Below, piece by piece: positions 35,984 through 61,883 of a DNA stretch of 64,000 nt. The stretch is taken from positions 76,507-140,506 of IMG/VR virus record IMGVR_UViG_3300029906_000002, one strand, 5' to 3'. Source of the DNA: a virus. A model generated the notes under the pieces. It made no database searches, was not told the origin of the DNA, and saw only the letters and a program-made list of their open reading frames with translations. Numbering within the stretch: position 1 is the stretch's first letter; the number at the start of each line of letters is the position of its first letter. A program made the position numbers and the translations under genes.

Positions 35984-36328
35984 ATGATTAAGAGATTTGT
36001 ACCCATAAAAACCCATTCTATATTGGCTGTAAAATGGGATGGAAACATTGATACGCTTGAAGACATCGAAGCAATAACGGGTAAGTGTACCGTCGAGATG
36101 AAACAGGAAAGTTTTAATACTAAAGGATTCAGATTTGCTGATGATGTCAACTATCTGGTTGAATATGATAATAAGAAGATGTTGTATGTAGCTACCAGTT
36201 ATGGATTGTTCTGTTGCAACGTCGGTGACTATGTAGCCAGTATATATAATAAGGATAAAGACGACATGTTGTCGTCAGTAATTCGTGAACATGTATTTGA
36301 GAAAACTTATAAATTATACGAACAATGA
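35984..36328 (+). CDS. Conserved phage hypothetical protein
   Basis: AVKWDGN...VGDYV...FEKTY pattern; stop overlaps groEL start. Confidence 0.7.
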
Positions 36329-37875
36329 GTAAGATTATTAAGGAAGGAAAAGAGTGTCGCAACAAGGTTGCTGAAGGTATGAAAGTGCTATACGACATGG
36401 TATCCATGACGCTTGGACCAGGCGGAAAGAACGTGGCTATCGTGGATGGATTCGGCGGATTGAAGGTTACCAAGGATGGTGTCACCGTCGCCAAGTCCGT
36501 GAAGATTGACGATGAGGCTATGAATATCGGTGCCATGTTGCTCAAGGAAGCCGCACAAAAGACTTGTGATGAATCAGGTGATGGTACCACTACTACCACG
36601 GTGCTCGCCTACAATCTTATCAAGGAATGCGAGAGCTATATTGACCAAGGCGGTATTACTGTGACCCAGTTACGCAACAGTCTTGCTGAGGCTTGCAAAC
36701 AGGCTGTGGATGCCATCAGAAAGATTGTTATTGAGTGTAAGGATGCCGAGGATATTCACAATGTAGCCCTCATCTCTTCCAATGGCGACAAGATGGTAGC
36801 CGACCTGGTTACTGAGGCTATCGTGAAGGCGACCAAGGATGGCGCGGTATCTATTGAAAACTCCCAAAGCACGGAAAGCTATGTGGATGTTGTTACAGGC
36901 ATGAGATTCGAGAAAGGTTACGAATCGCCGTATTTTATCAATGACGAGAATATGAAGACCTGTACATTTGATGCCCCGAACATTCTCGTCATTAGAGGCA
37001 AGGTAGACAACGTGAACAATCTCGTTACCATCCTCGGCAAGACCATTAAGGAAGGTAACGGTAGACCGGTACTTATCATGGCAGACGAATTCGAGCACGA
37101 CATCATCAACATGCTTGCCGTGAACAAGGTACAGGAAGGTGTGAAGGTTTGTGCGGTCAAATTACCGTCTTTCGGCGAGCAACGTGATGCCATGACGGAT
37201 GATATCTGTAAGCTCATCGGTTGCCAACCTATCACATACGCCTTGTCTGGCGGTTATGACTTCGACATTGAAAAGCATGTAGGCAGTTGCGATAAGATTA
37301 TCGTAGACCTGCACAATACAACTATAGCAGGAGGAGATGGAGACCCTGATGTGATTACGGCAACCATTGAGCAGCTTCGTGAAGAAATCAATCATGAGAC
37401 AGATAGCTCTACAATAGCCCGATTGAAGGAGCGTCTTGTCAAGCTGTCCGGCGGAGTGGCGGTCATTCATATCGGTGCCAATTCGGATACTGAGGTGAAC
37501 GAAATCAAGGACCGTGTAGACGATGCGGTATGCGCCGTTCGGTCGGCCCTGCAAGAGGGTATTGTACCCGGTAGCGGGTTTGCTTACTGCTATGCTATGC
37601 ATGAACTTGCAAAGATGGGCGGGTATGGTAGCGAAGGACGTGAAATACTCATCAAGACGCTGCCGGTCATCCGAAAGATGGTTTACGACAATATGGAGAT
37701 AAGCCATCATAACCAGAGCGAATGGTACGATGCTTCCAATGCTGAAGGCAATGAACTTATGAACAAGGGTATCATGGATCCATTCAAATCTATCCATACC
37801 GCACTTGAGAATGCTGTATCAGTTGCTTGCATGTTCTTGATTATGAACGGCTGCGTAATTGAGAAGCATGAATAA
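36325..37875 (+). CDS. groEL: Phage-encoded chaperonin GroEL
   Basis: [55 protein letters not shown]; no GGM tail. Confidence 0.97.
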
Positions 37876-57021: not shown

Positions 57022-57081
57022 TAACCCTTAAAACCGAAAGAAAGTATGGAACAAATAAGCGTTGTCTATAACGATGTTGAA

Positions 57082-58347
57082 TACACATTGTATTTATATA
57101 AACAATTAAATTATATAGTAAAGTATTTGATATATATAGAATATTTTCTATTTTTGTAAAAAGAATTAGAAAATGAATAAGGCTTTCAAATACAGGATAT
57201 ATCCGAATAAGTCTCAGAAAGAACTTCTTTCTAAGACGTTCGGATGTGTGCGTGCAATTTGGAATGTCAATGTCGAATCATTCAATTCTTATGATAAAGA
57301 AAGTAATTATAAACCTAAAATTATTACCAAATCCGATTTAGTAGCCGATAAGCCCTGGTTAGACGAAGTATCGGCTGCTGCCATACAACAGAAGATAAGA
57401 GATTTTCAAGAAGCTACAAAACAGTTCTTTTCAAAAACAAGAAAGAAGAAAATAAATAGACCGACATTTAAGAAGAAGTCCAATAATCAGTCTTACAGAT
57501 TGCCCAATCAGAAGTTTTCATTAAAAGGTAATAAAATAAGATTGGAAAAAATTGGATGGATAAATATGTCTATTGATAGAAATATTCCTGACAATTCAAA
57601 AATGTTGTCTTGTACAATATCAATGAATTGTTGCGGTCAGTATTTCGTTTCAGTATTGGTTGATACGGAAATTAGCCATAAGGCAAAAACGAATAAATCG
57701 GTTGGAATAGATTTAGGATTAAAATCGTTTGCTACGTTATCTGATGGTATAATTATTGATAACATAAAGTTTTTCAAAGAGAAACAATTTGAAATAGCTA
57801 AAATACAGAGACATTTAAGTAGAAAAATAAAAGGTAGTAATAGATATAAAAAGAACAAACTTAGAATAGCAAGATTACATAACAAGATTGCTAATAAGAG
57901 AAATTACTTCCTTCATAATATAACTACATCATTAGTAAATAATTATGACATTATTTGCATAGAAGACTTAAATGTTTCTGGTATGTTATCTAACCATAAA
58001 CTATCAAAAGCTATATCTGATACAAGTTTTTATCAATTCAGGTCCATGTTAGAATACAAGTGTAAATGGTACGGGAAAGAACTTGTTGCGATAGATAGGT
58101 TTTATCCTTCATCAAAAACATGTTCTAATTGTGGATGGAAGAAAGATGACTTAACTTTATCTGATAGAGTTTTTAGATGCGATAATTGTCATATTCAGAT
58201 TGATAGAGATTTGAATGCTGCAATAAACATAAAGAGGGTGGGAGTTGATACCCTCTATAATCGGATACAGAGGGATGAGGTTGCGAATCTCGTTGAAGTG
58301 TCTAAAATTGAATAGTAATTTCTATATTTTACTATAAAATTTACAAC
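57082..58347 (+). mobile_element. Non-autonomous tnpB-only IS (IS200/IS605 or IS607 type)
   Basis: AT-rich; ends inferred from restored ORF (2-nt TA ambiguity); TTGAA at left junction; imperfect subterminal inverted similarity TAAATTATATAGTAAAGTAT vs rc TAAATTTTATAGTAAAATAT; no tnpA in window. Confidence 0.75.
57173..58315 (+). CDS. tnpB: RNA-guided endonuclease TnpB
   Basis: KAFKYRIYP HTH start; RuvC GIDLG, IEDLNV, DRDLNAAINI; Zn finger CSNCG...CDNC. Confidence 0.95.
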   Translation: MNKAFKYRIYPNKSQKELLSKTFGCVRAIWNVNVESFNSYDKESNYKPKIITKSDLVADKPWLDEVSAAAIQQKIRDFQEATKQFFSKTRKKKINRPTFKKKSNNQSYRLPNQKFSLKGNKIRLEKIGWINMSIDRNIPDNSKMLSCTISMNCCGQYFVSVLVDTEISHKAKTNKSVGIDLGLKSFATLSDGIIIDNIKFFKEKQFEIAKIQRHLSRKIKGSNRYKKNKLRIARLHNKIANKRNYFLHNITTSLVNNYDIICIEDLNVSGMLSNHKLSKAISDTSFYQFRSMLEYKCKWYGKELVAIDRFYPSSKTCSNCGWKKDDLTLSDRVFRCDNCHIQIDRDLNAAINIKRVGVDTLYNRIQRDEVANLVEVSKIE

Positions 58348-58613
58348 TATAATGTGTTTATCAACGGCAAGATTACTCCTTGCGCGATAGCTGTACTGAA
58401 TGAAAATGAATCTTCAGTCAAAGTCAAGCAAATAGCGAGTACTACCATCAAGGAGCTGTCAAATGCAGTAAAGAAGGAAGCCAAGCAGGCAAGAATAAAG
58501 TATCTAATGCTTAACGACAAAACGACAGAAGAAGCCTCATCGTTGCTAAGCAAGGAGAGCAAACTGAAAGAAGTTATTGATTCATTGTCTTACTGTAAAA
58601 CGGTTATTGTGGT

Positions 58614-58961
58614 ATGATAGACTTATTTAGCGATTTGACATCCATCAGCAACTTTGCCAACGACAGGAGCAAAAGCAACAACTTAATAGCCAACTGGTTG
58701 TTCGTATTGAATATCATCATGTTGATTGTCTATGTTCTTGTTGCTGTCTTTAATGATGGTACACATATTATTGTTACTGTTTCATCTATTTGCGTGTCCC
58801 TGTGCGGTATCTTGTTTGGCTTCTACATGAAAGCCGAAGCAAAGAGTTATAAGTTCATCAGGGATGCTGCAAATGAATTATTGTTTAACATTTTAAGAAA
58901 AGAAAATGAAGAAAGAGAAAACAAAGAAAGGGAATCTGTTCTTCACGCTGAAAGGCGTTGA
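58614..58961 (+). CDS. Two-TM membrane protein
   Basis: Two hydrophobic helices then charged tail. Confidence 0.7.
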   Translation: MIDLFSDLTSISNFANDRSKSNNLIANWLFVLNIIMLIVYVLVAVFNDGTHIIVTVSSICVSLCGILFGFYMKAEAKSYKFIRDAANELLFNILRKENEERENKERESVLHAERR

Positions 58962-59917: not shown

Positions 59918-60220
59918 ATGGAAAAGAAGTTTTTTGTACGTGGTGCCGATAGTGGCATTTACTATGGTGAGATCGTAAGACGCGACGACCGTGAAACCGA
60001 GATGGAGAATGCGTATTATGTCAAATCCCTGACAAGTGTGGATATGCTGTACCACCTTGCCATGAAGGGTTTTCCCGAACCCAGCTTTGACAAGCCCGTT
60101 GAGGACATTAGGCTGACGGATACGCCATTCAGAACAATCATCACCGATACCTGCGAGATCCTTTGCGTGACCGATGAGGCCAGGGAAAGTATCGAGAAGG
60201 AAATGCCCTGGCTGAAATGA
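59918..60220 (+). CDS. DUF6948-like conserved phage protein
   Basis: FFVRGADSGIYYGEI...ENA...LA..G pattern. Confidence 0.55.
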   Translation: MEKKFFVRGADSGIYYGEIVRRDDRETEMENAYYVKSLTSVDMLYHLAMKGFPEPSFDKPVEDIRLTDTPFRTIITDTCEILCVTDEARESIEKEMPWLK

Positions 60221-61025: not shown

Positions 61026-61883
61026 ATGGGGCTGAGACCGTTAAAGATCAACAAGGAGTTGACCATCAGGGATTCAAGGGCGGTGGATTTGTATTTCCAG
61101 GAGATCAATAAGATACCGGTGCTTACACCGGATGAGGAAGCTGAGCTTTGCCAAGACCTGCATTCCGAGGATGAAACCAGGAGGCTGCACGCACGTGACG
61201 AGCTTGTAAGACACAACCTTAAGTTCGTTATCAGTGTAGCCAAGAGGTACCAGTCCCTCGGTTACAGGCTTGGCGATCTGATAGCCATTGGCAATATCGG
61301 CCTCATACGGGCTGCTGAGAAGTTCGACCCTACCAAGGGTTTCAAGTTTATCAGTTACGCCGTATGGTGGATACGCCAACAGATTATGAGCGAAGTTGGC
61401 TTTCGTGTGAATGGCGTGAAGCTGCCCAGCAACCGCGTTACCATTATGTACAAGATCTCTAAGTTCAGGGAAAAATTCTACAAGGAAAACGACCGTGAAC
61501 CCTTCCTTGCTGAGATTGCCGACGAGTTCGGTATCACAGAAGACCTTGCGTCTGACATCATAGGAGCCTCAACGGACATGTCCAGTCTCAATGAGCTTGC
61601 CTTTGATGACAACGACGGCAAAGAGATTGTCGACAACCTTGCCGACAACTCGGATTTTGGAGAGGACATAGCCAACTTGGATTCCGTATCCAAGGAGGTG
61701 AAGAAGATCCTCTCGGTGCTCACACCCAAGCAACGCCTTGTTGTAGGGTACTATTTCGGACTTGGTGGGAAAACGCTTGACGCCCATCAAATAGCCGAAG
61801 CCACAGGATTGCGCCTGCAAGATGTCAAGAAGAGCTTGCAGGAAGCTATCGACAAAATGAAAAAGGTCGGGCAAAAACTTTAA
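61026..61883 (+). CDS. rpoD: Sigma-70 factor resembling the Bacteroidetes primary sigma
   Basis: LYFQEI..IPVL, NLKFVISVAKRY, GNIGLIRAAEKFDPTKGFKFISYAVWWIRQ, region-4 HTH; no region 1.1. Confidence 0.92.
   Translation: MGLRPLKINKELTIRDSRAVDLYFQEINKIPVLTPDEEAELCQDLHSEDETRRLHARDELVRHNLKFVISVAKRYQSLGYRLGDLIAIGNIGLIRAAEKFDPTKGFKFISYAVWWIRQQIMSEVGFRVNGVKLPSNRVTIMYKISKFREKFYKENDREPFLAEIADEFGITEDLASDIIGASTDMSSLNELAFDDNDGKEIVDNLADNSDFGEDIANLDSVSKEVKKILSVLTPKQRLVVGYYFGLGGKTLDAHQIAEATGLRLQDVKKSLQEAIDKMKKVGQKL

Follow-up and report, generated by a model that had tools for sequence, protein, structure and literature searches.

The closest described systems belong to the IS607 family, for which CboIStron (10.1101/2023.11.20.567912), ISXfa1 (PMC10711439) and the IS607, IS1535 and ISC1926 elements (PMC6188088) serve as references. 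[quoted passage not shown] An imperfect subterminal inverted repeat was described for IS607 ends (PMC6188088), IS607 scaffolds include the core (PMC10711439), and a model for the cycle of transposase and TnpB is available for CboIStron (10.1101/2023.11.20.567912). The exchange of TnpB between Y1 and serine partners was already reported (PMC10691335). In ISDra2, the last canonical pair of the pseudoknot is at −3; −2A forms a non-canonical pair with a G and is followed by −1 (PMC10097598). Phage homing endonucleases of the SegF type have also been reviewed (PMC13565253).

In this work, a tnpB-carrying insertion in a phage gene was analyzed within a stretch of 64,000 nucleotides, called the window here; related loci are given by L numbers. 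The source record is a 168.6-kb phage, estimated to be 93% complete, that carries genes for terminase, portal, tail, chaperonin, and sigma-70 proteins, and the phage harboring the element is of the gut type. The phage-encoded sigma-70 factor and a GroEL-like chaperonin lie at 61026-61883 and 36325-37875 of the window, respectively. With a probability of roughly 0.8, we regard the insertion as a non-autonomous IS607 derivative with an internally deleted tnpA, a GTAT target, and a predicted cycle of cutting and repair by TnpB.

Borders of the Element and the Interrupted Gene

57046..57093, + strand: 5' part of the host gene, 16 codons (from homologs and empty alleles; the intact gene encodes 104 aa)
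57094..58350, + strand: whole element, 1,257 bp (from empty alleles and siblings)
58351..58617, + strand: 3' part of the host gene, with an in-frame GTG at 58354

The interruption of a phage gene, claimed in an earlier note on this DNA, was borne out by homologs and empty alleles. A search of a protein collection gave 14 homologs of the host gene (104-119 aa); all 11 that were retrieved read EY(T/I)L(Y/C)NVF, most of them DVEY-TL-YNVF. Each of eight empty alleles encodes a 104-aa protein, the closest with DVEY-TL-YNVF, and syntenic contigs without the insert read TAC ACA TTG TAT AAT GTG. Removal of 1,257 bp from the window restores the 104-aa ORF. The insertion site is GTAT|AATGTG, and the insertion is precise, without loss of target DNA in the window. 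TAT is found at both edges of the insert (57091-57093 and 58348-58350) and in a single copy in the empty allele, a pattern read here as a shared short core, although the sequence fits a 2-3 bp duplication equally well.

The junction predicted in the earlier note (DVE|YNVF, giving 101 aa) is contradicted by the empty alleles in relatives, which place the true left border 9 bp to the right; the 101-aa excision ORF is in frame because nine extra bases are also removed. An exact search of viral contigs for that junction gave no match. Likewise, no related loci were found with the 87-aa fragment as query, and the empty alleles came from the protein collection. Once the border is corrected, the proposed TAM TTGAA does not adjoin the element and therefore cannot be the TAM under the logic by which it was chosen; GTAT is predicted instead.

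The 5' part of the host gene runs into the element up to a stop at 57157-57159, which would give a 37-aa peptide. According to an automatic gene call, an 87-aa truncated product could start at GTG 58354; it would miss the first 18 residues, which all homologs have. Neither the 3' part in Pfam nor the intact homolog in PHROG matched a family. It is most likely that the interrupted gene, cut after codon 16, is knocked out and dispensable.

An IS607 Element With an Internal tnpA Deletion

57094..57159, + strand: left end, in which motifs containing ATAG are spaced by 21 bp (alignable with the left ends of the autonomous L258 and L261)
57107..57126, no strand: left arm of the subterminal inverted repeat, 20 bp (90% complementary to 58324-58343)
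57126..57156, + strand: predicted promoter, TTTG at 57126-57129, a 19-bp spacer, and TAnnTTTG at 57149-57156 (from the sequence)
57160..57180, + strand: 3' remnant of tnpA, K-E-L-E-N-E-stop (6 codons), which runs into the tnpB start (as tnpA and tnpB overlap in L258, L256, and L018)
57173..58315, + strand: tnpB, 380 aa (Pfam HTH_OrfB_IS605, OrfB_IS605, and Cas12f1-like_TNB)
58324..58343, no strand: right arm of the subterminal inverted repeat (partner of 57107-57126)

The element has a GC content of 29% compared with 42% for the genome and is present as a single copy in the record. Two relatives from gut phages whose TnpB is 78-81% identical to that of the window (L256 and L258) carry an upstream serine transposase scoring above the NF033518 cut-off, and the more distant L070 also has an IS607 transposase above it. 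Because the left end of the window element aligns with those of the autonomous relatives and the last tnpA codons are kept, the element is read as an internal tnpA deletion, which removed tnpA between the promoter and its last codons and left both ends, tnpB, and the omega RNA in place. The ends have the imperfect 20-bp subterminal repeat and short ATAG motifs of IS607, without terminal inverted repeats, and the arms of the repeat are probable TnpA-binding motifs.

A search of the whole 168.6-kb, 93%-complete record for Y1 and serine transposases found none. The earlier observation that the window lacks a transposase thus extends to this record, in which neither a tnpA nor a serine recombinase for the element was found. 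TnpA was also not found in two distant related phages. In the TnpB tree, the window falls into a 33-row clade (SH-aLRT 100) in which each member has either a serine transposase or no transposase, Y1 being confined to the rest of the tree; this quick IQ-TREE was midpoint-rooted and omitted loci without a full motif-bearing ORF, and its labels came from one Y1 query and can count remnants as serine. With that one query, no Y1 transposase was found upstream of the members of the window clade. The family is thus IS607, with a serine transposase, and not IS200/IS605, despite the IS605-like profile of TnpB.

The element was also said to have its own promoter motif, and TATTTTTG is indeed found at 57149-57156; this −7 box is kept in the left ends of L258, L261, and L070. 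We take the predicted promoter at 57126-57156 to be of the Bacteroidota type, going by the consensus. It is predicted to be the former tnpA promoter, now placed ahead of tnpB. A sigma-70 promoter scan scored below chance, and no terminator was found.

Other loci show further arrangements. The left end is gone in L270 (2490-2560), where host sequence enters tnpA in frame with the end of an upstream phage ORF, and in L334 (2420-2500), where it enters a longer tnpA remnant. L257 and L259 are phage IS607 serine transposases with a very different TnpB type and without the AACTAT end, so two IS607 lineages occur side by side in gut phages.

TnpB Protein

The TnpB was described earlier as intact with the RuvC D-E-D residues, and this was confirmed by the Pfam domains and by D180, E264, and D346, which are invariant among relatives together with the zinc-finger cysteines C317, C320, C336, and C339. 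It scored 380 bits against the IS200_TnpB model (cut-off 425) and 205 bits against the IS607_TnpB model NF038280 (cut-off 350), which it did not pass; the TnpBs of the autonomous L258 and L070 have the same score pattern. The nearest natural solved structure is that of ISDra2 TnpB (PDB 8bf8/8h1j; E 7e-68). Between tnpB of the window and its siblings, about 50 synonymous against 28-40 non-synonymous codon differences were counted. Judging from its sequence, the TnpB is apparently functional. No close TnpB was found in 185,579 species genomes (best full-length match 42%) or in annotated phages (best 45%); the close relatives come from phage-like contigs and not from bacterial species genomes.

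Predicted Omega RNA and Guide

58233..58350, + strand: scaffold of the predicted omega RNA, with an approximate 5' boundary; it includes the final codons of tnpB (from the fold, covariation, and analogy with ISDra2)
58344..58350, + strand: conserved right end CAACTAT (from comparison of right ends)
58351..58366, + strand: predicted 16-nt guide from the host gene, starting AATGTG (from the register; length by analogy with ISDra2)

The 3' region of the element folds much better than its shuffles (z −4.35), and 15 pairs changed on both sides across 13 relatives. In all 13 relatives, pairing is possible between the loop AGUUG (58243-58247) and CAACU (58344-58348). These five pairs are nearly invariant, four of them never varying, so they are compatible with an ISDra2-type pseudoknot rather than proof of one. 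Past AACTAY, conservation drops sharply, as expected at the passage into a variable 3' guide. In the ISDra2 register, A58349 is −2 and faces the loop G, and T58350 is −1; the guide is therefore predicted to start at 58351. By this analogy, the register favors a core AT and a TAM GTAT, with a core TA possible. The earlier proposal of a right-end RNA whose guide matches the empty allele stands, whereas the guide itself most likely starts three bases later than proposed, at 58351 (AATGTG). A search against Rfam gave a chance scaRNA match only. In the single-sequence fold, the guide (58351-58361) pairs with 58224-58232 just 5' of the scaffold, which could sequester the guide if the RNA starts that far 5'.

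Target Motif and Sibling Copies

57090..57093, + strand: target motif GTAT, the predicted TAM, its last AT probably serving as the left-hand recombination core (from empty alleles L052 and L053 and 12/12 left junctions)

Three siblings (L335, L339, and L340) have the same tnpA-deleted form of 1,256-1,257 bp, with 90-92% nucleotide identity in tnpB. Their sites lie in the same phage family, and the flanks are unrelated save for GTAT before the shared left end. The L335 site is empty in six relatives, which read AAGTAT|TTTG. The window itself has AAGTTT at 59918-59935, where these six relatives have the AAGTAT taken by L335. The distance from the end of GTAT to the first ATG is exactly 66 bp in five more elements. 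GTAT stands at all 12 scored left junctions, compared with 0.006 per position as its frequency in the genome; this set was aligned on the motif itself and is partly circular, and the final AT or TAT may be donor-derived. What counts as independent evidence is the G(T), the constant spacing, and the three sites checked on empty alleles (window, L335, and L267). The right ends have the sequence AACTAT, except for three with AACTAC (L001, L024, and L335); no empty allele was found for L024. A GTAT at −43 in L001 and L003 was considered as a junction and rejected, since comparison with the empty allele L330 revealed that the left end is truncated; it is outside the 12 sites.

The GG core and G-rich target typical of most IS607 members are absent in the lineage of the window, which has GTAT and AACTAY. 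The core of this lineage is probably AT rather than GG, and by analogy the TAM is predicted to be the transposase target GTAT. No IS607 element with a GTAT target was found in the open-access papers that were searched. We lean toward the view that an IS607 serine transposase and an IS605-type TnpB with its omega RNA became co-adapted to an AT-ending target (GTAT, core AT) in a phage-borne chimeric lineage, against the published GG and G-rich rule.

Loss of Target DNA in Related Insertions

In most filled relatives, unlike in the window, target DNA on the right side of the insertion is missing. Three sites have lost 11, 15, and 28 bp, L335 about 1 kb, and others still more; the loss was seen in L006, L019, L267, L260, L008, and L335 by comparison with the empty alleles L225-L250, L282-L305, and L052-L055. 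In these relatives, the right end abuts a second site, which ends in TAT or TAC. The lineage seems to remodel phage genomes, its right ends often being fused to a downstream xTAT and frequently rebuilding the ATG of the gene that follows. Each of three processes could account for the loss: an adjacent deletion made by the transposase, recombination of neighboring copies, or microhomology repair.

At the right ends of L003, L018, L019, L222, and L267, the terminal AT together with a host G rebuilds a downstream ATG. In L267, the promoter box of the downstream gene is among the lost 28 bp, and this gene may rely on read-through from the element. An element-free allele in L226 (1460-1540) joins the left flank of the L019 site to the right flank of the L006 site; the joint resembles the scar that excision of a hybrid element like L064 would leave.

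Proposed Cycle and Homing

We propose the following cycle on the basis of published models (10.1101/2023.11.20.567912, PMC10711439, PMC6188088). A serine transposase acting in trans would excise the element and insert its circular form at GTAT by recombination through a 2-bp core, probably AT and with lower probability TA; this recombination would leave TAT at both junctions. TnpB with the right-end RNA would then cut GTAT followed by the guide match, which is the empty allele left by excision or brought by a co-infecting relative, and recombinational repair of the cut allele would copy the element back. The filled allele would escape cutting, because its guide match is preceded by CTAT; we infer that this right end, CTAT and not GTAT, protects it from its own nuclease. 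No GTAT followed by a guide match within five mismatches was found in the own genome.

Copies of the tnpA-deleted form are present at four sites that are unrelated to each other but lie in one phage family, each copy directly after GTAT; the form has therefore relocated after the loss of tnpA. Homing between co-infecting phages is a plausible hypothesis. Among the eight empty alleles, GTAT is present in only two (L052 and L053, probably one phage), where the guide matches at 15 of 16 positions. The other six are without GTAT through synonymous TTA codons; escape selection was considered, and we make no such claim for these plain synonymous codons. The filled site of the window was found on no other phage background and is seen in this genome only.

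Alternative Readings

One alternative is a solo tnpB of the IS200/IS605 type (IS1341-like), moved by Y1, with TAM TTGAA, borders at 57081/58348, and guide TATAATG. The model scores of TnpB (380 bits for IS200/IS605 vs. 205 for IS607), ISDra2 TnpB as its nearest natural solved structure, and the in-frame 101-aa excision all speak for it. On the other hand, the homologs have the extra TL or IL, the empty DNA alleles keep the nine bases, and the exact junction is absent from viral contigs; moreover, the closest full elements have a serine transposase, the window keeps the last tnpA codons, and the one Y1 query found no Y1 in the clade. This makes the IS200/IS605 origin highly improbable. A self-splicing IStron that keeps the host gene functional at the RNA level would agree with an insert within a gene and with a length that is a multiple of three, but the element has no more than 79 bp ahead of tnpB and 35 bp behind it, there is no Rfam intron match, and an in-frame stop stands at 57157-57159; its probability is close to negligible.

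The remaining alternatives keep the same element. If the crossover core were TA, the nuclease would need only GTA or GTAY and the guide would start at 58350. The right junctions AACTA|C in L001, L024, and L335, two of which map to TAC-ending targets, and the GTAC of the empty alleles of the L006 site where the filled allele has GTAT, are in line with this. However, the other right junctions, about 19, read AACTAT, none having A or G at that position; mismatch-tolerant cores giving products with a donor-type left and a target-type right junction have been published (10.1101/2023.11.20.567912), and the ISDra2 register places the scaffold end after AT. A TA core is thus unlikely. Somewhat less doubtful, yet still not the expected case, is that the element transposed in and is now stranded, drifting in a dispensable gene with no practical homing because TAM targets are rare or a helper is missing. 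The six of eight empty alleles without GTAT, the filled site restricted to this genome, and the end branch of the window TnpB (0.11, longer than those of its neighbors) point this way, against which stand the intact catalytic residues, promoter, RNA stems and both ends, the synonymous excess in tnpB, and the four sites reached by the deleted form. Moreover, stranding concerns current activity and is compatible with origin as an IS607 derivative, which is the reading we prefer.

Significance of the Lineage

The window element alone would be an ordinary transposase-less TnpB insertion, and the lineage is more useful. If the chimeric view is correct, it would offer a compact nuclease that uses a short GTAT TAM, along with a serine transposase whose core differs. 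The target of the transposase and the TAM are believed to evolve together, and a serine transposase with an IS605-like TnpB at GTAT is a natural test of this idea following a partner swap. The test is direct, as the autonomous copies are complete, the empty alleles are matched, and the guide register is defined. If active, a 380-aa nuclease whose TAM has only 4 nt could also broaden the targeting range of TnpB editors.

Comparison With Known Systems

With the IS607 group (CboIStron, ISXfa1, and IS607/IS1535/ISC1926), the lineage shares a serine transposase in full-length relatives with tnpA overlapping tnpB, an imperfect subterminal inverted repeat with short motifs, a short core at both junctions, a target motif predicted to be the TAM, and a core within the RNA scaffold. 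Unlike the published members, it has a GTAT target and an AT (or TA) core instead of GG or TGGG/GGG, and the window element has a deleted tnpA, a TnpB closer to the IS200/IS605 model, and no group I intron. The IStron trait of a group I intron core in the left end is absent: the left end has 79 bp, and Rfam gave no match. The canonical D-E-D, a predicted AT-ending TAM, a predicted pseudoknot between 5' stem-loop and 3' end, and the same apparent register are shared with ISDra2 TnpB, whereas the partner is a serine recombinase and not Y1, there are no IS605-type GC-rich terminal hairpins, and the predicted TAM is GTAT compared with TTGAT. The RAGATH-18-associated IS607 TnpBs (ISFba1, PDB 8iaz; PMC11061315) have the same IS607 context and a similar size, but the window element has no RAGATH-18 match in Rfam and the protein match is weaker (E 5e-49). 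Free-standing phage homing endonucleases of the SegF type resemble it in that spread is proposed to occur through cleavage of the empty allele in a co-infecting phage. In contrast to them, the window element is predicted to be RNA-guided, has discrete transposon ends, and moves to new sites.
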